Shown here: piece after piece, positions 29,845-56,945 of the stretch
Position numbering within the stretch: the stretch's first letter is position 1
Layout of the letters: every line of letters starts with the position of its first letter
Assembly: GCA_951406725.2 (NCBI GenBank)
Contig: OX597816.1
Location: 153,636,001-153,700,000 of the forward strand
DNA: 64,000 bases
Reading direction: 5' to 3'
Source of the DNA: Octopus vulgaris
Lineage: Eukaryota
Position numbers and translations under genes: made by a program
Notes under the pieces: model-generated
Database searches by the model: none
The model's input: only the letters and a program-made list of their open reading frames with translations
Told to the model about the DNA's origin: nothing

Positions 29845-32700
29845 CAGGGGTGGGCGAACTTTTTTGATCGCGGGCCGCACAGTGCGTCCTTGGAATCTTG
29901 GCGGGCCTCATTTATAAAAATCAAGTGAAAATATTTTTAAAGGCGGTTATAGACCTATAAACACACAATTGATTGAAAGGAAATTTTGTGAAATATTCCT
30001 GGTTTAAGTGATTTAATTTATTGTTTAGAGTATCGGGTTCATGTTTTTCGGTTATTTGCTCCTATAGTTGAAATTATTACAGGAACCTCGGTTATTTTGG
30101 ACAACCTGTTATTGCTTACAAATTGCCAGGAACGGAATTTTCCTAGTAAAATCTGCACTAATTGTGGACAACTACCTCTTAATATTATGGACAACCATGA
30201 TGAATATTATACTTAAATTCTAGGATACCCAAAATAAAAGATTTTAAAGAGAAATAACAGTATATTAATATGAATTGATATCTGAAATTAGAAACGTCAC
30301 CTGAAGCATTTATTTGAAAAACAAAGCGGCTCTGTAAATAACAATGTCAATGAGAATGATGCAGCTGACTACTGTCATTTACCAGTTTGTCAAAACTAGG
30401 TGTCAAGTTGCTTGTGCTGATTCTTAACACTGACTGAAGATTTGAGTCTGTGAGAAGTGATCGATTCTTCCCCTTGTTAATTTTCATGATGGAGAAAGTC
30501 TGCTCACATATGTAAGTTGATGCAAACAACACAAACATCTTTCTTGCAAATTTTTTTAGATTTTGAAACTTTTTTGAATGTAGAGAAGCATAAAACTCGA
30601 TCAGTGGTTTACTTTCAAACATCATCTTTAAAGAATTGTCGGCTTGCAAATGAATCAGTTCTATCTGCAGTTCCTCGGTAGTTGTTTCAATGTCACAGGC
30701 AAGAGGTGAGTTAAGCAAATCGAACAGGCCTTCAACTGCCTTGAAATCAGCAAATCTTCTAATGAATTCCTTTTGTAAAGCCATCAACTGGGAACTGTAC
30801 TTGTCCGATGATTCTTGTGTAACAGACTGTGCTTTCAGCAGAGGGAAGTGAATAAATTTTTGCTCATTCAGCTGCTCGGCAAAAAGTCCAAGCTTCCATT
30901 GAAAAGCTTTCACTTCCAGGTACAATTCATGAGCAAATATACCTTTGCCTTGCAGTTTTGTGTTAAGTTCATTCAGCTTCTGCATTATGTCCACAGCAAA
31001 TGCAAAATCACAAACCCATTCGTCACTCCTCATTTCGTTTAAAAAGTCACAGGAGATGTCTTGCATTTTGAGAAACATAAGAATCTCTGCTTTGAGGTCC
31101 CATACTCTCTTAAGAACTTTTCCAATGCTTAACAAGCGGACATTTGTGTAGTACAGCACATCAGTAAAATCAGCCTCCACATCCTCCAAGAAACTTCGGA
31201 ATTGCCTGTGTTTCAATCTCCGTGATCTTATTAAATTCACTGCACGCACCACAGGTTCGATGACATGTTTGAGTTTTAAAGATGACTTACAAAGGCTTTC
31301 TTGATGTATGATGCAGTGAAAAAACAACACACTGTGTAGTGGAAAATCTTCTTTGATTTTGTCATTCAACAACTTCACAAGGCCGGAATGTTTACTGGTG
31401 AGTGAAGGAGCTCCATCGGTTGTAATGCTGGCCAGTTTATTTAAGGTTAATCCAGACCTGATTGAACTGTTAATGACACTGTTGAACAAATCTTTTCCAG
31501 TAGTAGTGTCTTTGAGAGACTCCATAGATAACAATTCCTCTGTAATTTCAAAGTTTTCGTCAATTCCTCTGATGTAGATGAGTAACTGAGCAGTATCCTG
31601 AATATCAGTACTCTCATCTAAAGCAATAGAAAACCACTGAAATCGACCACTGGCTGTTAACAGCTGTTCATGAATATTCACGGCAATTGCATCAATGCGA
31701 CGAACAATAGTTCTTCGTGACAGGGAAATGGCTTCTACTTTTGACTTAACTTCAGGAGACACAACGCTGACAGCATCAACCATACAATCTTTGATAAATT
31801 CTGCTTCTGCGCATGACTTGTTTTGCTTTGCAATTTTGTTGGCCAATATAAAACTTGCCTTTGTCGCGTTCCTTTGTAAAGAGGAAGTTTTATCAAACAC
31901 ATTTTGCTGTTGCTTCAAACGTTTAGTCAGATCATTTGCTTTCTTTTGCAGTTCTTGTTTTGATAAATTGTGTCCAAAATTGGCGTGCTTCGTTTGAAAG
32001 TGGTGTTTCAAATTATATTCCTTGAACACAGCAACTGTTTCAGAACAAATCAAACATGCAGCTTTCACTCCAACGTCGGTAAAGAAATACTTTTCAGTCC
32101 GATTTTCATTAAAAACACGACATTCCTCTTCAATTTTTCGCTTTTTAGATAGCTTCGAACAACTCATTTTGGGTAAATTTTATCAGACAACAAAAGCTAG
32201 TTTGAAACACTCGTGTCTGTACTAAATTCAAATAATCGATAGAGTGAATGATAACCAACCACAGCTCTGTGTCCAGAAAAAGCTGGTTCAAGCCCTTTTA
32301 TTAACCTGGCCGGCTTCTTCATTGGAACGAAAGGCATCGTCCATCATGCCCTCTTCACCATCTATCACGTGATTTATTTATTTGAATGTTTCAAGCATAT
32401 CGATTGGCTCGTTGTATTGCCACAATACTTGTTTCATTGTTCTATTAATTTTTGTTTTTGTAGGGTCTTACGAGAAAACACAGAAAAGATATCTTCACCC
32501 GGAAATGTGTTTTATTATGATGTCATGGGAATATTTCTCGAAATTTTTCATCGCTTCACGGTAGCTGAAAAGAGACAAACAGCGGACAATTTTGTGAAGG
32601 CGCGAAACAGTGAACTGAAATAAAATGCAAACTATTGTGAATTACCGTACAACTGAAACAGTTACGAAGTATCTGCATAGAAGTTGGGATTCATAAAAGC
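29845..32700 (-). mobile_element. hAT (Buster/Charlie, SPIN/GTF2IRD2-like) transposon with only one recognisable TIR
   Basis: TIR-like CAGGGGTGGGCGAAC at 29845, exactly where the mariner ORF is interrupted. No matching TIR seen at the other end, so the right boundary is approximate. Confidence 0.75.
30347..32167 (-). CDS. hAT transposase, 606 aa (GTF2IRD2/EPM2AIP1-like)
   Basis: Uninterrupted ORF with BED-type finger CLIC..HFQTKH, catalytic DDE in ALDESTD, TTDGA and CEQTFS, HCIIH motif and hATC dimerisation region. Confidence 0.92.
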   Translation of the reverse strand: MSCSKLSKKRKIEEECRVFNENRTEKYFFTDVGVKAACLICSETVAVFKEYNLKHHFQTKHANFGHNLSKQELQKKANDLTKRLKQQQNVFDKTSSLQRNATKASFILANKIAKQNKSCAEAEFIKDCMVDAVSVVSPEVKSKVEAISLSRRTIVRRIDAIAVNIHEQLLTASGRFQWFSIALDESTDIQDTAQLLIYIRGIDENFEITEELLSMESLKDTTTGKDLFNSVINSSIRSGLTLNKLASITTDGAPSLTSKHSGLVKLLNDKIKEDFPLHSVLFFHCIIHQESLCKSSLKLKHVIEPVVRAVNLIRSRRLKHRQFRSFLEDVEADFTDVLYYTNVRLLSIGKVLKRVWDLKAEILMFLKMQDISCDFLNEMRSDEWVCDFAFAVDIMQKLNELNTKLQGKGIFAHELYLEVKAFQWKLGLFAEQLNEQKFIHFPLLKAQSVTQESSDKYSSQLMALQKEFIRRFADFKAVEGLFDLLNSPLACDIETTTEELQIELIHLQADNSLKMMFESKPLIEFYASLHSKKFQNLKKFARKMFVLFASTYICEQTFSIMKINKGKNRSLLTDSNLQSVLRISTSNLTPSFDKLVNDSSQLHHSH

Positions 32701-36684: not shown

Positions 36685-37148
36685 TAGGCGCAGGCATAGC
36701 TGTGTGGTAAGCAGCTTTCTTCCCAACCACTTAGTTCCGAGTACAGTCCCACTACGTGACTCTTTCGGCAAGTGCCTTCTACTATAGCTGTGGGCCTTGA
36801 GGGTAGATTTGCTAGACGGAAACTGAAAGAAACCCGTCGTATATATGAGTGCGTGCGTGCGTGTGTGAGTGTGTGTGTGTGTGTACGCTCGTTTATGTAT
36901 ACATATATGTGTGTGTTCGTGTGCGTGTGTGTGTGTATGTGTATTTGTGTCTGTGTCCTTCACCACCGCTTGATAACCGGTATTGGTTTGTTTACACCCC
37001 CGTAACCAAGCAGCTCGGTAAAAGAGAATGGTAGAATAAGTACCAGGCTTATAAAATAACTACTAAGGTCGATTTATTCGACTAAAGCCTTCAAGCGGTG
37101 TTCCAGTATGGCCATAGTCCAATGAGCAGAACATGTAAAAGATAAAAA
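36685..37148 (+). mobile_element. tRNA-derived SINE, family C, with internal (GT)n
   Basis: Head AGGCGCAGGCATAGCTGTGTGGTAAG, body GGAAACTGAAAGAAACCCGTCG. Homologous to 45900-46333 and 52902-53300. Confidence 0.8.
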
Positions 37149-37635
37149 CTGAAAGATTCCGATTATTTTGTGTTTAAAAATTCTCATGGAAGAAAACATT
37201 TGTGTATGCTTGAAAACTTTTGGAACCGACTTGATATCAAAATTGTTGAAAGGTACAATCCTCGTCGGATTCTTTGTTTCTGTTGAATAGGAGATGTTTC
37301 ATCCTAACTAACTCCATTTTTCTCAATCTTATTGAGTTGGGTTTAAAACCAAAACAATAATTACAAAAAGTCTAAATATGATTATTATATATATATATAT
37401 ATATATTGGTTTGTTTACACCCCCGTAACTAATAAGCGGACAGCTTTTTTCTTATTTTTATAAGAATGCCATATTAGTATGGCGATAACTATTATTTTCC
37501 GGGAACGCTGCCGCTGTTCTCTTTTAGAGAGACTTAGTTATTTTAATATTTCTATTATTGAAAACAAGTGGATGTATTCCACCGAAACTAGGTAAATAAA
37601 ACCATCGAACAGAGATTGTCGGAAGCGACACCTAC

Positions 37636-37697
37636 TGGCTGGCTACGCTGCATTGAAAAGGGGCAATACCCCGAAACGCGTCTGTAGCTGCCGGTCA
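37636..37697 (+). ncRNA. Type I hammerhead ribozyme, copy 1 (predicted cleavage after C37682)
   Basis: Helix I TGGCTGGC-tac-GCTGCA / TGTAGC-t-GCCGGTCA; core TTGAAAA (U3-A8 variant of CUGANGA); helix II GGGG-CAATA-CCCC; GAAA; palindromic helix III ACGCGT; GTC cleavage triplet. Confidence 0.88.
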
Positions 37698-37982
37698 AGT
37701 AGTGTGGAGCGACTGACCTCCCTTGTTCGAAGGTTATATGGATACAGTTTGTATATCAAATAGCTAACTTAAGGCGATGGCCTCATGGAGCTAATAAGCG
37801 GACAGCTTTTTTCTTATTTTTATAAGAATGCCATATTAGTATGGCGATAACTATTATTTTCCGGGAACGCTGCCGCTGTTCTCTTTTAGAGAGACTTAGT
37901 TATTTTAATATTTCTATTATTGAAAACAAGTGGATGTATTCCACCGAAACTAGGTAAATAAAACCATCGAACAGAGATTGTC

Positions 37983-37999
37983 GGAAGCGACACCTACTG
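37983..37999 (+). repeat. Left target-site duplication of the LINE (17 bp, GGAAGCGACACCTACTG)
   Basis: Identical to 43359-43375. Removing the LINE and one copy restores an intact 362-bp unit. Confidence 0.95.
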
Positions 38000-38216
38000 A
38001 TTTTTCCTTGGATTACGTCGGATTATTTTACGCTGTAAGCTGTTATGTTAGTTCGTTCTGTTCTGGATTTACACGTACAATTTTTGGAGTATTAACTTGT
38101 GAAACAAAGTAATTTTCGCCCTTCGGGGTAGAAAATTTCTTTTTATATATGAACTTTAATTCAGTGTGGATTTAATTTTTATCTTGTCTCTTGTGACAAG
38201 TCACTTGCATTTTATT

Positions 38217-39697
38217 ATGGATCTTGACTTAACGTCAAATTCTGATTTTCCCGAGATGGGAGAAGTTATAAAGCAAAAGGATACAAAGGAGAAACAAAGT
38301 TTTTCGGAAGCCGTTGGAGGCAATGTTATAGAACTGGAAGTAACAATGGAGGATCTCTTCAAGTTCAGAAAGTTCATACAAAGGAATGGAGAAGAAACGA
38401 GAATAATACCGCCCCCTGACACCTTACAAGCAATCCGTGAGAAGACGGTAATTTATAAGGTATATAATATTAAGGAAAAAAAGATTGCAGATGTAAGAAA
38501 TGAATTGGTAGAACGGTGCATGGCACCAATTTGGAACAAGGTTCGCTATGTTGGCCGAGGAGTGAGAAGCGCTACTATTGAAGCGCATTTCGAGTCGGCT
38601 AGCATAGCGAAGGAAATTTCAACTCAAACGTTGAAGAGTGCAGACATCCTGTTGCTGCCCACGTACTTAGGGCGCAGAACAGCTAAGATAACAATAGAGG
38701 ATATACCAACAGGTTACGATGTAATGTGGGCAGCAACAGCGGTCGTATTCGACGTAGAAGAGAAATTAAACATTTTAAACATGAGGATGAAAGAGGCAAA
38801 ATTTTGGAAAGGTCAGCAGCTTGAAATGATCGTTCAAGCTGACAATGCAACGCTGGAGAGTTTGCCAGACAGGGTCTTCGTGGGGGATGGACACACTGCG
38901 TGGGTATCGGTTGAGGGACGTAGGCCCAGATGTTTCAAATGTGGGCAGAAGGGTCACGTCCGCTCAGAGTGCAAAAGAAAAAACCCGTTAATGCCCCCAT
39001 TCAAACCGCTGTGGAGAACAAAGCAGACATCACAGCAACAACAAAAGAGAATACCCGGAAAAAGCAAAATGAAAGTCAAAAGGAGGAAAAGAAAATGAAT
39101 GGAAAACAAAGCGAAAACGAAAACGAGGTGGAAAATATTTTATCAAATGGAAAAGAACTGGAAGTAATGGAATATACGACTGTAACCAACAAAAGGAAGA
39201 AATCCAATACTCCGGACTCCCCACCCCAAACAAAAAGAAAAACAAACGCAGAAGAACAACACAAAAAAATTATCCAATCCCACCCCGCTGGCACTACTTT
39301 TGTAGGCCAGCATTTCATTAAACCCCAGCCCCCAACTTTAAAAGGATTCAAAAAAACCGATAGATGCATTGCTTATAACACAAAAAACGAGAGAGTAGTT
39401 TGGTACATAAAGGCGAAACCAAACATAAAATGTTTCAAATCATCGGAAAAAAACCCGGATTGGAGGTATGCGAAGGTTGGAGAGGAGGAATGGAAGGAGA
39501 GACTCTTCCAACTACACGTGAGGGACAACCTGATTAAAGATGTCACACAAGAGGTGATAGCTGGAAAATTGAATATTAGCCCGCCAGCCACTCCATCCCA
39601 GAGCCCGGTGGCAACGCCGGTTAAATGCCCAGCAACAACGGAGAGTGTGGGGGAGGCAGGCAGACAAAAGCTGCCATGCTCCCTCTCACAACCGTAA
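38217..39697 (+). CDS. LINE ORF1, gag-like nucleic-acid-binding protein with CCHC knuckle (one -1 frameshift near 38980)
   Basis: CFKCGQKGHVRSEC knuckle. Track ORFs 38166-39098 and 38930-39697 join through an A-run. First ATG at 38217. Confidence 0.8.
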
Positions 39698-39721
39698 GTA
39701 ACAAACTTTCTTCATTCATCG

Positions 39722-42700
39722 ATGATTAAGTTGGGCTGTATAAATGTGCGTGGAATGGGGTCGAAATGGAAACAGGCTTGCTTGCTGGACGACCTCAGGA
39801 CACACAGAATAGATGTAGCCATTGTCACCGAGTCCAAGATGAGAGGAACCCAAGCGTTCTCGCATCTTCTCAATGGTTACGAGAAATTTATTTCTCCTAG
39901 CCGAGGAGGAAGTGCAGGCGTGGCAGTCCTTATCAGGAAGAACTTGGACTTACAGGTAAGTACTGTCTTTATGGACCCAGAAGGTAGGCTGGTTGTCCTC
40001 GATGTAACTCACGTAAGTAAGCAGTCCTTCAGGTTGGTAGCTGTTTATGCTCCTAATGAGGGTAGGCAGACTGGTTTTTATCGGAACTTGAAGCACTTTC
40101 TAGTGACGTCTAAAACGGTAGTATTGGTAGGGGATTTCAACACTATCATCGATGCGCGGATAGATAGTGTGGGCTCGTCTGATAGAAGGGGGAATCCTTG
40201 CCTTAAGGGTCTACTGACGAGCTTTAATCTAGTAGATCGGTTTCGAATGGATGAGCCGAGCATTCCACAGTGGACGTGGAGTAACAATGACGGCTCACGC
40301 AGATCGTATATAGATAGGGTATTTGTTAAAGAACGAGATAGGAATAGCATTAGCTGTCCACAATTTTGTATTGTGCCTTACACGGATCACAAATTAGTGA
40401 CGTGTGAGGTACATGTAGATAAATGCCATAGACAGGGACCCGGATACTGGAAAATGAACAAGTCTATTTTGGCTTGTGAAGCTTTCCGTAACCGGATTAT
40501 GGAATTAGTCCAGAGGGCATTATGTGGAACCATCATTAATAATAGATGGTCGATCGCCCTCAAAAGAGCCATCCGTTTGGAGTCCATTAGATTTAGCAAC
40601 CAGCTAAGTTTAGATAGGACTAGAATAGAGGGCGATTTAGTTAAGAACTTAGACGAGGCAATGGGATCTGGCTGTGCATCTAGAGTGTTAGCAGAGAGAA
40701 CGATCTTGTACCGTCACCTCAATGCCAAGCATGAAGGATGTAGAGTCAGAGCTAAGCTACGTGCAGTGAAACGAGAAGGTATTAATGTTGCCGGATGGGC
40801 ACGTCGTGTGGAGAGTCAGAAGGGCAAAAAGTCCTCTATTAAGTCTTTAACTGACGAACAGGGACGCAAAATCTATGGACAGGAGGAGATACAGAAGGTC
40901 TTTCAACAGCATTTCGCTCGGTTGTTTGGGGAGGGCGATCCACTCGAGCGAGGGGAGGACTTACAGAACTTCCTAGCTGGTGGGCCTCGGCTCTCGCCAA
41001 GCAGAGCGGAACGCTGTGAAGGACCGATTACTCCCGCGGAGGTAAGAGGGGTTTTGGCTGAATGCGCCCGGGAAAAGTCGCCGGGACTGGATGGTCTGCC
41101 CTATGAGTTTTATTGTTGTATGCCGGACTTGTTCGGGGACATACTGGCAAGCGTCTACGCAAACTGGCAACAGAATGGGAGGATTCCCAGTTCTGTGAGC
41201 CGGGGAGTTGTGACGCTGATCCAGAAAGACCCGAGCAAGGGGGATAATATTAGTAATTATAGGCCCATAACTCTACTTAATGTAGAGTTAAAGATTTTGG
41301 CCAAGGTGTTAGCAGAAAGGTTGAAGGTCGTCATGGAAAAACTTGTCGGAAAGGCACAGACATGTGCAATCCCAGGCAGGTCGATCGAAGATAATCTTCA
41401 CCTTCTACGCTACACTATAGACAGGGTTGGGCAATTAGCCGGCAAAGGAGGGGCATTGGTCCATTTAGACCAAAGTAAAGCATTTGATAGGGTAGATCAT
41501 CAGTACCTGGCGACGGTTCTCGAAGCGGCTGGGCTAGGTCCTGACTTTCGCGGGTGGATATCAGCTATGTACAGCGGTATCAAGTCCACAGTCCAGATAA
41601 ACGGTTACTTAACGGAACCGTTTTCGATTAAGCGTTCAGTTCGTCAAGGATGTCCCTTTGTCCCCTCTCCTGTACGTTTTGGCTCTTGAGCCATTGCTGC
41701 GGAAGTTGGAGACGGTGAGATGCAATCCTAATGAAATCGGATGCGGTAAGTCTGTTTCTGCGTATGCGGATGACGTCACCTTCATCGTGTCCAACGAAGC
41801 ACAACTAACTCGTGTAGAAGGTGCTCTCCGAAGATACGAAGCGGTGGCTGGGGCAAAAGTTAACAAGGACAAGTCCACTGGTTTGCGCCTCGGCACCTGG
41901 AGGAACAAGCCGATATCGTCCAGTGTTGTTGGACACTGGACAGATGGTCCTGTTAAATTGCTTGGAGTTTGGTTTGGTTCAGACTCCCAGACGGAGAAAA
42001 ATTGGAGCGAGGTAGTGACCAAGGTAGAAGCCATAGTTCGGGAGTGGTCCGGAAGGCATCTTTCCTTGAAAGGGAGGGCGGAGGTGGTACAGGTGTTTAT
42101 AGCATCTGTAATCACCTATCGCCTGACTGTCGTGCCTTGCCCCGATTTGTGGCTAAGCAAGTTGGATCGACTCCTTTTCCGCTTTTTGTGGAAGGGAGGA
42201 AAGCCACTTGTAAGGCGCTCCGTGTGTTGCCAGGAACCACTAAAGGGTGGGCTGGGGATGCCTTGGTTAATGATGCGCAGGCATGCGCTGAGACTGAGAC
42301 ATCTCTGGTTTCACCTGGAAGGTGATAAGGTGTGGAGTCCGCTGGCAGATAATTTCTTCCCGCAACCGGACTCTATGGAGAGATTTAAACCCGGTTTCAT
42401 TAAAAGACGGAACCTGACTTTATGGCAGAAAGAGTGCCGACAGGCACTCTGGCTGATCCACAAGATAGGCAAAGCCGGCTGCGGGAATACCACCTCGACA
42501 TTTTATAGAAGGATGGTAGAGGCAAAAAATGACGACGTCCTAAGAGGGGCTCTGGGGTTCGATGAGGATCAACTATCCGACCTGTTTAAGAAGACTTTCA
42601 AGCCGGGGTATTTGGACAATTACCAAAAATCCCTGACTTGGCAGTGCTATAGGAATGCTCTACCTGTTCGCGATAAGTTATATAGGCATGGAATGTCAGT

Positions 42701-43121
42701 GCCACCGACATGTCCAAGATGTGGGTTGGACGATGAAACCGTCCAGCACGCTTTTGTACATTGTCAGGAGCTGTCAGGCTTAATAAGTTACGTAGAACAC
42801 GTGTTGTCGCATCTGGGACGAGTACAGCTATCGGCTGGTTCTATAATAAAGATGATACCGCCAGCTGGACTCTCAAAGGAAGGTGAGGCTTGTTTTCACT
42901 GTACGGTGGCAGTACTGAAAGAGTGTGTGTGGAGAACTAGATTGGAAGGTTTGGTGTCAGGAACCTTTGTCTCTGGATATGGTATGTTAAAATACTTCAG
43001 ATACCATCTAAAGAGCAAGATGGATTTAGAGAAGAGGAACCTGACACAGAAAAAGTATGTGAATCGATGGAAGGATGTGATAAAAAAGGTGGGTGTGAGT
43101 AACCCTGCTTGGTCATCATGA
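39722..43121 (+). CDS. LINE ORF2: AP endonuclease, reverse transcriptase and C-terminal zinc finger (one frameshift at about 41657)
   Basis: APE motifs INVRG, VGDFN, YIDRVF and TDHK. RT motifs SPGLDGL, YRPITLLN, DQSKAFDRVDH, RQGCP/LSPLLY and YADD. GGLG motif and CPRC..ETVQHAFVHC finger. Confidence 0.92.
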
Positions 43122-43373
43122 AGGGAGAAAATAGTCTCTGGGCTCTTAGGCTGTCGGGTAAGAATCCTGACTGTGATATACCTAGCTGGCCAAAATCATT
43201 TTTAATTTTAAAAAAAAAAGGAGAAAAGTAAAGTCTAGTATCATAATCAATAATCAACATATGTAAATATCAAACGAACAACGTAAACTTTTTGTAATTA
43301 TGTTTTGTATTGTAATGTACTATCTCTGTAAGATTTTTATAATCATAATAAAGATTTAGGAAGCGACACCTAC

Positions 43374-43435
43374 TGGCTGGCTACGCTGCATTGAAAAGGG
43401 GCAATACCCCGAAACGCGTCTGTAGCTGCCGGTCA
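43374..43435 (+). ncRNA. Type I hammerhead ribozyme, copy 2 (cleavage after C43420)
   Basis: Identical to copy 1. Confidence 0.88.
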
Positions 43436-43735
43436 AGTAGTGTGGAGCGACTGACCTGCCTTGTTCGAAGGTTATATGGATACAGTTTGTATATCAAATA
43501 GCTAACTTAAGGCGATGGCCTCATGGAGCTAATAAGCGGACAGCTTTTTTCTTATTTTTATAAGAATGCCATATTAGTATGGCGATAACTATTATTTTCC
43601 GGGAACGCTGCCACTGTTCTCTTTTAGAGAGACTTAGTTATTTTAATATTTCTATTATTGAAAACAAGTGGATGTATTCCACCGAAACTAGGTAAATAAA
43701 ACCATCGAACAGAGATTGTCGGAAGCGACACCTAC

Positions 43736-43797
43736 TGGCTGGCTACGCTGCATTGAAAAGGGGCAATACCCCGAAACGCGTCTGTAGCTGCCGGTCA
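43736..43797 (+). ncRNA. Type I hammerhead ribozyme, copy 3 (cleavage after C43782)
   Basis: Identical to copy 1. Confidence 0.88.
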
Positions 43798-44096
43798 AGT
43801 AGTGTGGAGCGACTGACCTCCTTGTTCGAAGGTTATATGGATACAGTTTGTGTATCAAATAGCTAACTTAAGGCGATGGCCTCATGGAGCTAATAAGCGG
43901 ACAGCTTTTTTCTTATTTTTATAAGAATGCCATATTAGTATGGCGATAACTATTATTTTCCGGGAACGCTGCCGCTGTTCTCTTTTAGAGAGACTTAGTT
44001 ATTTTAATATTTCTATTATTGAAAACAAGTGGATGTATTCCACCGAAACTAGGTAAATAAAACCATCGAACAGAGATTGTCGGAAGCGACACCTAC

Positions 44097-44158
44097 TGGC
44101 TGGCTACGCTGCATTGAAAAGGGGCAATACCCCGAAACGCGTCTGTAGCTGCCGGTCA
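44097..44158 (+). ncRNA. Type I hammerhead ribozyme, copy 4 (cleavage after C44143)
   Basis: Identical to copy 1. Confidence 0.88.
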
Positions 44159-45899
44159 AGTAGTGTGGAGCGACTGACCTCCCTTGTTCGAAGGTTATAT
44201 GGATACAGTTTGTGTATCAAATAGCTAACTTAAGGCGATGGCCTCATGGAGCTAATAAGCGGACAGCTTTTTTCTTATTTTTATAAGAATGCCATATTAG
44301 TATGGCGATAACTATTATTTTCCGGGAACGCTGCCGCTGTTCTCTTTTAGAGAGACTTAGTTATTTTAATATTTCTATTATGTATATATTTATATTTATA
44401 CGGAAGTGGATGGCAGAATCAGTACGGCATAAAACAAGATATTTGTTATTTGATTACCTCTTTTAACGTTTTTCGAAATTACAATCCTGTCCAAGTCGAC
44501 ATTACTTTTCATTCTTGGAGTTCAGTAAAACAAGCGCTACCCTAGAAAACGGTACAGCAGCAGTCAGATGATTAAAATCAGAAATAACAGTTTACGTCTA
44601 ACACTTCGTGGTGAAAGATATAATGAGAGCAAGTTGGTCGATGTTTATCAAATTATGACTACATTCCAGTAGGTAAAAGAATGTATATATCTACACCTAA
44701 TTCAGAGAGCATTGACAAGTATAGCAAATCTGAAGATAGTCTTAGGAGATTCTGATCTCTTTAGTCTGATTCCTATTAACATAAGGTTATTATCACTTGC
44801 TTTAACTCAGGGCAATCTTTACAATAAGACTAAGTATAAGATACATATATATGATAAGGTAAACTCTCAGACAGTTTCAATAATCCCCATCGCCAATTCT
44901 CACACATATATTGACGAGCCAACGATGGATTTTCTGAGTAGTCGCTCGGCTCACTAGAAATAGCAGCCAATTCTCTCTCAAAACAAACTTTACAGTTTAA
45001 TTAAAGAAAGAAGGCATTATATAATTTGATCCTATATACTTCTAGAAAACAGGGCGATTGCCACTGGAATGCTCTGAATCATAATTTTGTGAGATCAGGT
45101 AGCAACACTAAATATTGCTTTCTTTTGACAAGGCCTTTAATTAAAAGAATGAAAATGAACGATGTTGTAATATTCATGTACGATATCAATACCTTCAAAG
45201 TTAAAGTAACAAAGAGATCGAACACAGCTAAACGCTGGAAAAATGGTTGAAATGGAGTTCAATAAGCAGATACATATTCCTAAGATGTATGCCATCCAGA
45301 ACATGAATGTGTATGCGCGCGCGTGTGATAGTGAGTGAGTGTAGTGATTATATGAATACTAATTTATGACCTGTTCAGAAGTTAACGGTAATAATTTTTG
45401 TCATTAAGATGTAACCCAGTCTTAGTAGTGCATTATCAGCTGTATAACGTATATATAGGCATCTTGGGAAATAATGGAAAGTGGTAAGGCCTGATATTTA
45501 TAAAAAGAGAAACAGCTTTTAGCAGTTATTGTTGTTCAACTCCGTATTATAGAAAGTGAACAAAACTTCAGCCACCATTTTGTTTTCATATATAATAATC
45601 TGGTGTCGCATTGTCCAATTTATCGTTCTTGTTTTAAAACTGTTGGATCTGATTTGAGGGTGATTTGGTAACAGTTTTTAATAAATCGAGCAACAGCGTA
45701 GATACTCCGAGCAATCTTTTCTTTGAATGATGCAGTGGGTATGAGTGACATTCAGATGAGTTTAACTTAGATATGTAATCAGACAGTTTATCAGTTAAGG
45801 AATCCGTCAGCTGCCTGCCTAAATGATGAATTATCCGCCTGTATGTCCGTCAGTCGGATATTCTGTAAGTACGTCGGATAAACACCGCCTAGATTACAT

Positions 45900-54728: not shown

Positions 54729-56653
54729 TTATTTTGTAATGTTTGTGTGGTTTTGTCGATTATAATGATCTTTGTACTTACATGAAACGTTTAGAGTGAC
54801 GTCAGTCAAAACAAATTTTGTCTTTGAAACGAGTTCTATGTGAATTCGATTTACTATTGACAAGTTCCCGAAAAGTTTGATTCTATTCACACCTTCGATT
54901 AAAAAATACGTATTGTTAAGTATTAAGTCTGATTTAGAGACTTTAATGAAGAAGGTTACATCGTCTGTTTTATTTATTTCAAAATGGAAAATAATATCTT
55001 GTGGATTAGTTATTTTAATTTGGACGGTACAGTAATTTCTAGAACTTGCTTGAATCATTATAGCAGATATGCAAAATGAAGGATTGTATGAAAAAAGAGG
55101 TGTTTTACCGTCACCAACTTTTATATTCGAAAGTGTTTTATTTGTATTCAATAAATAAATATCGTTCGTCAGTATACAAGTTTTGACACCCACCTGTTGA
55201 AAAGCCATTCTAAAAGAGTTAACATCAAGACCAATATAATAAGCAGCGCGAATAACATCACAAGCTCCGGTTGAAAAATCCGATGTTGGATGCCAATACA
55301 AACGATTGGCTAACATAAATGCGTGATAGGCATCTTTGATTGGAATTCTATAATCCTGGACCACGTAGTAGAATGCTTTGTTATAAATACCACAACCAAA
55401 ATGAGGGTCTAAGCTTTCGGTGTAATTATCGTAATGGTTCACAGACAGTTTATCCTTTGAGGGATCATCCAAAGATCTAAATCCTCTATCATCAGATTTT
55501 GTTATATACTTCCCTATTGACCAGTCATTTTGTCCGAGATAAGCTTCCAGAGTTTCACCTGTTATGTCAGAGAATGATTCGTCCATAGAGCCAGACTGTC
55601 CGAAATTCAAAAGACAGGAATGTTGTTCGGTGAAGCCATGTGCCACTTCATGACCTATGATATCAGCCACTGTATAAGGATAAGAAAACTCTCCTCCGTT
55701 ACCAAAATTGCATTGCTTTCCGTCCCAGAATGCATTGTCAATATCATAATATACTCCAATTATTAATTTGTTCCGTAAAATTTTAGTCCCGTACCAGGAA
55801 AGAAACATATCGAAAAGAGCACTGCCGTAATACAGAGCATCACGGGCAGGAGAATTAGCTCCATTAACTGAATCATCAAAATTATCGAAGCATTTATAGC
55901 TGACTACATTGTCAGTATCCCTATAGGTTGGACGTCCACTAAAATTGAGAACTTTTACATATTGGTTCTCCAGAAAACAGGTATTCCCTTGATTTCTCTT
56001 TACAAAAATTTTCCGATTGTCTCTGCTGTAAACAAACGTTCCACTTTTCTCATTACCACCGTGACCAGTGAGTAAATGGTTAGCAAAAGTATCAAGTTTC
56101 GACCATTGTAACAAAATATCTCCGGTATGAGCGCTTATAAGAAACGCCGGTCGCTTAACCACTTCATCAGTATATATTAGGTAATCAATTTCGTAGATCA
56201 AACTTACATCGCCGAAATCATCAACGTAAACTTTTCTGTGCGAATTATAGTTGTAAATGTTCTTTTTAAACTGACCGTGCCCAGCCGAGATGATTGCAAT
56301 ATCTAAAGCTTCTTCCTTGGTTAATGTCGCCGATAATAATTTATCCCAGTGATGATAGGTACTCAGCCCCTGGATAACAAAACCGCTTGCCAAACCGGTT
56401 AGTTCACCATTAGATTCGATTACGACCGAAAGTGTTCCATCGTAGATAGGAATATCTTTGTACAATTGTCGCAACTTTAAGATCCGAAGTCCTTGGCTCG
56501 TGTTAAATTGATCAATAACATCGAAACTGTTCGGTGGCACAAGACCAAAGAGATCTGTGAGTGCAGTTGCTTTATTCAGCCGGTAATTGTATTGTAATTG
56601 TTCTTTAACATTAATACGGTTCAAACGTCGCCCAACGGGTCTCGGCATAAGAA
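54729..56653 (-). CDS. Peptidase family M4 (thermolysin/pseudolysin/vibriolysin-like) zinc metalloprotease, main exon: FTP and PepSY propeptide, catalytic domain, about 150-aa C-terminal extension
   Basis: Motifs GHGGNEKSG, VNGANSP, DNAFWDG, HEVAH (HExxH), GSMDESFSD (third Zn ligand), DPH..GIYNKAFY and ANRLYW. Strong acceptor TTTTAATTCTTTATTTTGTCTCTACAG ends at 56654. Confidence 0.93.
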
Positions 56654-56945
56654 CTGTAGAGACAAAATAAAGAATTAAAATGAGCAAAGTATATATTCAT
56701 GCATTTCCATGTGTACACATGTACACGCGTGCGCACATACACACACACACACAAACACATTTAATTTCAGTGCAGTTCAAGTATGGGGACATGAAATCCT
56801 AAGTAACTGTAGAGGAGTGTAAGCTGTAGTTATAACCCAACCAGCCAATTTTATTATGATTTACATTATGTTACTCATTCTTCTGAATGAAAGGTAAGAG
56901 AGTGCAGTAAAATAATTTCATACACAATTTCACCTGTTACATTTT

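Follow-up and report, generated by a model that had tools for sequence, protein, structure and literature searches.

Target-specific long interspersed nuclear elements (LINEs) of the Tx1 clade are known from a broad range of targets, including piggyBac, Mariner, Harbinger and long terminal repeat (LTR) elements, U2, U5, 5S, satellites and microsatellites (PMC4494074). In Tx1L of Xenopus (inserted in Tx1D) and the crocodilian Tx1-Mar, Tx1-8_Crp, Tx1-4_AMi and Tx1-9_AMi, a LINE with an APE-type (apurinic/apyrimidinic) endonuclease occupies a set position in another mobile element (PMC4494074). The LINE described here, found in a 64,000-nt stretch of the Octopus vulgaris genome ("the window"; GCA_951406725.2, contig OX597816.1, positions 153,636,001 to 153,700,000, forward strand), shares this arrangement; whereas the hosts of Tx1L and the crocodilian elements are DNA transposons or LTR elements (PMC4494074), the octopus host is a non-coding ribozyme repeat, the retrozyme Rz1, entered at its predicted transcription start. 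A second parallel is provided by Keno (Tx1 clade, U2 small nuclear RNA (snRNA)) and Utopia, with their snRNA gene targets and tandem insertions; for U1, only the DNA transposon Dada-U1 was given as of 2015 (PMC4640811). A third comparison is with R1Bm, SART1Bm and R2, in which co-transcription with the target and target-matching RNA ends aid accurate priming (PMC7265360, PMC4494074), as we predict for the octopus LINE; whereas these elements keep one conserved target for long times, within about 15% DNA divergence the octopus lineage has used no fewer than six targets. The host repeat itself resembles metazoan non-LTR retrozymes and newt satellite 2 in its low-GC 362-bp tandem unit, its type I hammerhead with short palindromic helix III, its Penelope-like tandem and inverted arrays and the precedent for an snRNA-type promoter (PMC7229834, PMC4209133, PMC2220036, bioRxiv 10.64898/2026.07.22.740005); its U3-A8 core is a less common variant.

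The first-pass annotation of this DNA had proposed, from one insertion, that the LINE might be site-specific for the hammerhead repeat, with a census of LINE 3' ends as the way to check it. Run genome-wide with a 26-nt pattern of the LINE 3' end, this census gave 30 matches, of which 21 lack a diagnostic C just upstream and define the Rz1 subfamily, the other nine (with C) being of a sister type. All 21 subfamily ends (16 loci on 10 contigs) run into (G/A)GAAGCGACACCTACTG, one exact position of the repeat, as had been proposed, while none of the nine sister-type ends lies at the Rz1 site. Since exact empty Rz1 target sites number 1,013 in the 2.8 Gb genome, chance is excluded as the cause of the shared site. 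For comparison, a LINE is classed as target-specific by the criterion of Kojima when more than 20% of its flanks are of one sequence type (PMC4494074); here 21/21 flanks are one repeat at one position. Another on-target count (21/22) came from a pattern containing ATCG, is biased and was not used for specificity. Site specificity of the subfamily for Rz1 is thus, in our judgement, close to certain. It is also recent and confined to the subfamily level, because the nearest sister subfamily (U1-type lineage) is at the Rz1 site in 0/9 cases; the unrelated flanks that the annotation had named as evidence against specificity do occur in this sister, and the proposal stands for the subfamily. Near-identical pieces of the LINE and of the repeat also occur in contigs of three runs that carry other organisms' labels; among the pieces listed none bridges the junction, the raw-read run amounts to one read, and the set is uninformative on specificity.

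The LINE has inserted at the Rz1 site repeatedly and independently. The 21 subfamily 5' ends comprise 13 full-length ends with the 17-bp duplication, three that lie behind another LINE across the 17-mer, and five truncated ones. One 5'-truncated copy (L092) has its own 16-17-bp duplication and, although only 1 of 2,050 bases separates it from the window LINE, is housed in a unit of an older type (6 differences in 228); a LINE copy of 69 nt carries a 10-bp duplication; and contig C2 holds a five-copy LINE-17mer-LINE array. These three cases require target-primed insertion by the LINE itself. Furthermore, the +1 base tracks the local array and the last LINE base tracks the LINE subtype. The relevant features of the window are as follows:

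37429-44381, plus strand: host array of the head-to-tail 362-bp hammerhead repeat (retrozyme Rz1), units 99% alike
37923-37934, plus strand: PSE-like (proximal sequence element) box AAAACAAGTGGA at -60 of the insertion site, a predicted snRNA-type promoter element
37951-37960, plus strand: TATA-like element TAGGTAAATA at -32 to -23, each base conserved in 16-20 of the 20 older relatives and not part of the pattern used to find them
37983-37999, plus strand: 17-bp target-site duplication, 5' copy, predicted to be the first 17 bases (+1 to +17) of the repeat transcript
38000-43358, plus strand: full-length APE-type LINE, 5,359 bp, without a poly(A) tail, terminating in AATAAAGATTTA
38217-39697, plus strand: open reading frame (ORF) 1, one CCHC zinc knuckle (PF00098), frameshifted near 38972 in the window copy
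39722-43121, plus strand: ORF2 with APE endonuclease (PF03372), reverse transcriptase (PF00078) and zf-RVT (PF13966), frameshifted near 41657
43359-43375, plus strand: 3' copy of the target-site duplication, restoring a whole hammerhead downstream of the LINE
43367-43446, plus strand: type I hammerhead, helix I GCUGCA/UGUAGC, core UUGAAAA (U3-A8 variant) at 43391-43397, cut predicted after 43420

The duplicated sequence, GGAAGCGACACCTACTG, is identical at both LINE ends (37983-37999 and 43359-43375) and cannot be extended beyond 17 bp; the annotation was accurate in calling it a perfect 17-bp duplication and in placing it at the 5' foot of ribozyme helix I, the foot of the extended helix being covered by it. 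The same 17-mer is present in three empty repeat units (at 37621, 43721 and 44082), with 5 matches in the window vs. 0 in 100 shuffles. In the order of the array, a 5'-truncated unit and a full unit precede the invaded site, which is followed by two full units and a unit stopping at position 300. The 26 bases directly before the retrozyme array (37404-37429) repeat a stretch 420 bp upstream (36981-37006), which we presume to be part of a common short interspersed element; the repeat may reflect a template jump or a Penelope-type tail. Across the genome Rz1 arrays are short, dispersed, 5'-truncated and often equipped with an inverted arm, with ends at unit position about 237 or 300, a layout resembling that of Penelope-like insertions (PMC8557442). 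With dispersed tandem non-coding units of 362 bp that each carry a type I hammerhead, Rz1 has the make-up of non-LTR retrozymes (units of 150-450 bp), and the array layout fits them as well (PMC7229834).

The LINE has the domain layout of the L1 group (APE-type), i.e., ORF1 and an ORF2 with N-terminal APE endonuclease, reverse transcriptase and a C-terminal zinc motif, as well as its insertion traits (target-site duplication, 5'-truncated copies, absence of LTRs). ORF2 spans 1,131 aa in intact copies; its catalytic motifs are found in the window LINE, and the best solved-structure match of its endonuclease is the L1 endonuclease. The description of the locus as a clean full-length insertion holds for length, judged against 16 other or same 5' ends, but not for cleanness, as each ORF carries one single-base frameshift; both ORFs are open in 7 of the 20 Rz1-subfamily copies examined. 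A CCHC knuckle in ORF1 is a trait of the Tx1 clade. With one such knuckle (PF00098) in its ORF1, the window LINE likely belongs to this clade; homologue searches returned no named Tx1 reference, and the closest named homologue was a function-unnamed protein of Argonauta hians (63% over the reverse transcriptase region).

As parsed, the Rz1 hammerhead has 6 bp in helix I, 4 bp in helix II and 2 bp in a palindromic helix III; metazoan hammerheads are described with this layout, and the U3-A8 variant is on record as well (PMC4209133). An initial parse (core CUGCAUUGA with insertions) was replaced by this one. Rfam reported no hammerhead in the window at gathering score and, at E up to 10 on one unit, only two chance hits and again no hammerhead; the assignment therefore rests on manual parsing and covariation. 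In an alignment of 23 sequences that represent four repeat families (10 selected among the 28 distinct Rz1 95-mers listed, and 13 from other families), 97.2% of cells are paired and 13 of 17 pairs show changes on both sides, against 0/500 shuffles and 28-53% paired cells in slid controls; most changes fall between the four families, so that independent events are fewer than cells. A regular-expression parser recognised 26 of 30 Rz1 100-mers vs. 1 of 23 from other families; the latter, in which core positions 4 and 8 are variable, were aligned instead. In single-sequence folding, Rz1 alone reaches significance (z -3.8, vs. -0.4 to -0.9 in other families). By this comparative evidence the repeat forms a genuine hammerhead, for which self-cleavage is predicted. 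The genome also harbours an abundant young Penelope-like element (L259, L264 and others) with a 781-aa frame and, at its C terminus, a GIY-YIG domain, and in 19/30 loci a minimal U3-A8 hammerhead lies downstream of its ORF. This element is the likely mobiliser of the retrozyme; a comparison of Rz1 with its ends gave no direct sequence match beyond the common hammerhead core, and an old unit was nearby at 1/30 loci.

Relatives of the Rz1 subfamily have other targets. The closest sister subfamily (U1-type) is 88-98% alike; YATAC follows 9/11 of its 3' ends, and one copy (L025) adjoins a full U1 gene at +1. Two U1-type copies bear U1 +1 to +17 at the 5' end, one of them (L109) at a non-U1 site between two U2 genes. 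More distant copies (85-88%) lie against the opening bases of U2 genes or of three further hammerhead repeats, a few being off-target: in 30 distant loci read, 8 copies were at the second, about 9 at the third and 1 at the fourth hammerhead repeat. Four copies adjoin U2 +1, and in 4/4 aligned U2 copies a stacked retrozyme-type 14-mer stands between the U2 duplication and the LINE. Some sister subfamilies thus keep the first 14-17 bases of the previous target at their 5' ends, and these leftover leaders are a record of the order of hops. A tree built from 47 segments of the ORF2 3' part (hits of at least 950 nt only, midpoint root, bootstrap not fully settled) places the Rz1 clade (19 rows, 100/98) within the U1-type lineage and the U2 copies among retrozyme copies. 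The site of Keno and Utopia is internal to U2. The Rz1 subfamily was not found in U2, and the sister copies there are at U2 +1; whereas Keno and Utopia have one common site (PMC4640811), octopus sister families at +1 leave a whole gene downstream. Several other loci of this lineage were observed: a U1 gene cluster (G000:C18:48.99-49.07 Mb, L111-L118) holds a nest of many broken copies; a LINE remnant (L212, G000:C1:162.63 Mb) lies in a third-family retrozyme 2 kb from an Rz1 array holding the Rz1 subfamily; and LINE subfamilies 69-76% alike (L050, L058, L059) start directly behind ATCAGTGAC boxes with ATCG leaders.

What these targets may share is an snRNA-type start. The upstream regions of U1 and U2 have ATCA[GT][TC] at -56 to -59 in 22/22 cases, other retrozymes have ATCAGTG at -57 to -60 of the insertion site (7-13.6 bits in 11/13 upstream stretches, the two misses not being native upstream sequence), and the Rz1 box, although weak (6.7 bits, p=0.016), agrees with U1/U2 in box and spacing. 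A pattern for the consensus-like form gave 251 matches vs. 3 for its control; most of the 20 read are older Rz1 relatives with AAA(T/C)CAGTG at the box position and a conserved TAGGTAAATA at -32. Older repeat relatives (L233-L252, 72-85% alike) have the same upstream box, as does another hammerhead family, whose core is the canonical CUGAUGA (L246, L247). A U6 search returned mostly promoterless-looking copies and did not discriminate between polymerase II and III. An snRNA promoter is reported for newt satellite 2, which is likewise a hammerhead repeat (PMC2220036). That the leaders start precisely at +1 and move together with the LINE is the strongest indication that the element uses +1 as a start site. 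The insertion site is probably the predicted transcription start of the Rz1 repeat rather than the ribozyme itself; the annotation was right that a retrozyme repeat is hit, but the relevant feature is probably this snRNA-type start, not the helix or the palindrome.

We favour, with moderate confidence, promoter capture with target hopping aided by target-matching RNA ends. This young LINE subfamily would borrow the snRNA-type promoter of the retrozyme for its own transcription, with the endonuclease nicking at +1 and +17; an RNA transcribed from +1 would start with 17 target bases and continue past the LINE into the target sequence that follows, with possible trimming by the hammerhead at +62. 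When another copy of the same target is entered, ends that match it would assist priming and an exact 5' junction; in R1Bm, downstream target sequence is required if priming is to be accurate (PMC7265360). Should a copy on a rare occasion land at another snRNA-type start, it would be transcribed with ends matching the new target, and this would fix the switch while demanding few changes in the protein or none. The ribozyme is rebuilt downstream of the LINE by the duplication, and about a thousand dispensable sites are offered by the retrozyme, which a Penelope-like element has probably spread. A broader form is more tentative and falls, in our view, somewhat short of an even chance: the lineage would target a promoter class, i.e., +1 of any snRNA-type unit, with RNA ends as the guide that locks a subfamily, and would hop among U1, U2 and several retrozymes without endonuclease change.

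Several observations weigh against promoter capture and target hopping. The start site, the read-through and the ribozyme cleavage are predictions from sequence; the Rz1 box is the weakest of the set (p=0.016) and the second-best site in the unit, and the older Rz1 relatives were selected by a pattern that includes the box. U1-type copies are mostly off-target, with 1 of 11 3' ends at a full U1 gene and 1 at a U1-like stretch, and the YATAC start in 9/11 of their flanks indicates a genuine preference for local sequence. At the nick, YATCG is common to U2 and to the third and fourth retrozymes, so that a switch among them needs no new recognition. L092 did not copy the +1 base of its donor, and the RNA tail is therefore not directly visible. 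Distances among LINEs and among their flanks are correlated (Mantel r=0.53, p=0.003, 16 loci), which could come from age matching or co-mobilisation alike, and one locus (L104) has an inverted junction inside the LINE. Finally, the endonuclease comparison had only two older usable copies; because the nearest sisters (L110 and L119, 98% alike) are without the domain, some of the residue changes of the Rz1 subfamily may predate the target switch.

Among alternatives, the one that survives best, albeit as an unlikely one, is that specificity is encoded in the protein: a few substitutions (D23, R26 and M84 of the endonuclease, or others in ORF1 or ORF2) would have retargeted the enzyme to Rz1, and start sites would recur only because copies landing at them get transcribed and survive. 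Target choice set by the endonuclease is the accepted view for Tx1 (PMC4494074). In agreement with it, these three residues differ between the Rz1 subfamily and two U1-type copies, 10 changes in ORF1 and 5 in later ORF2 are fixed relative to the U1-type copies covering them, and the off-target U1-type copies have YATAC in common. The endonuclease is nevertheless almost unchanged between targets: the loop aligned to the L1 hairpin, which we take to be the target-reading element, is the same in 21/22 aligned pieces and in every subfamily, D23 is also present in distant subfamilies, and the three residues align to L1 positions that are not known to be DNA contacts. Moreover, YATAC and C|RGAAG have little in common, and U2 copies, at 20-47 base differences in 5.5 kb from their nearest retrozyme relatives, have no coding change unique to them.

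Tethering, by which the LINE particle would dock onto the machinery of snRNA transcription (SNAPc or one of its partners) and cut at a fixed distance, appears less probable still. Ty3 and TRE5 are precedents for tethering at polymerase III genes, and it would account for six different targets with a box at about -57 being hit at +1 or a few bases from it, for L109 between two U2 genes and for the copy nest in the U1 cluster. The Rz1 subfamily, however, uses one of the many promoter types present (21/21), and the off-target U1-type sites L109 and L110, as read by eye, are without a box.

Hitchhiking, in which one or a few chance insertions in a retrozyme were copied as cargo by Penelope-like machinery, with the shared flank inherited rather than chosen, is very improbable as an overall explanation. 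It would be in line with the Mantel correlation, the identical full-length junctions in 13/21 copies, the inverted junction at L104 and the abundance of the GIY-YIG element with its minimal hammerhead (19/30 loci), but it is at odds with the truncated copies that have their own duplications (L092 and the 69-nt copy), the tandem LINE-17mer-LINE joints, near-identical LINEs in different unit types, and sister subfamilies acting alike at U1 and U2 genes, which are not retrozymes. As the sole cause it is weakened by L092, and it may account for a few copies, not for the overall pattern. Recognition of DNA structure, i.e., of the ribozyme helix or the small palindrome as a hairpin or cruciform, is scarcely credible: the site does lie at the base of a long predicted stem and shares positions with a 5-bp inverted repeat (the annotated palindrome TGTCG-GAAG-CGACA, present at 37979-37992), but an A variant breaks the inner pair at 8/21 occupied sites, the U1 and U2 targets lack such a helix, and re-insertion has occurred beside another LINE without a ribozyme downstream or without a palindrome upstream. 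The palindrome model was rejected.

Elsewhere in the window, an uninterrupted 655-aa frame (54729-56696, minus strand) encodes an M4 (thermolysin-family) metallopeptidase with propeptide and HEXXH motif; its best solved matches are bacterial elastases (E 4e-66). It is a bacterial-type gene in an animal genome and may stem from an old transfer. A 610-aa frame (30347-32179, minus strand) with a Spin-doc zinc finger and a hAT dimerisation domain is a hAT-like transposase.

The literature searched (subscription journals and Repbase being outside its scope) held no matching report of Tx1 in retrozymes, LINEs in hammerhead satellites, Tx1 at U1, such target switching or octopus Tx1, and no LINE parasite of retrozymes was described in the available portions of the retrozyme literature. 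Overall, this analysis adds retrozymes as a LINE target class and suggests that these retrozymes carry snRNA-type promoters. How site-specific LINEs gain and change targets is an old open question, the usual answer to which is endonuclease change over long times; with sister subfamilies 96-99.6% alike on different targets, along with intact copies and leaders, the octopus lineage makes protein, RNA-end and promoter models separable, which also has a bearing on the use of LINEs for targeted gene insertion. If the broader form is true, this lineage would represent a hyperparasite of a ribozyme element and a natural case of RNA-programmed, reprogrammable target choice in an APE retrotransposon.

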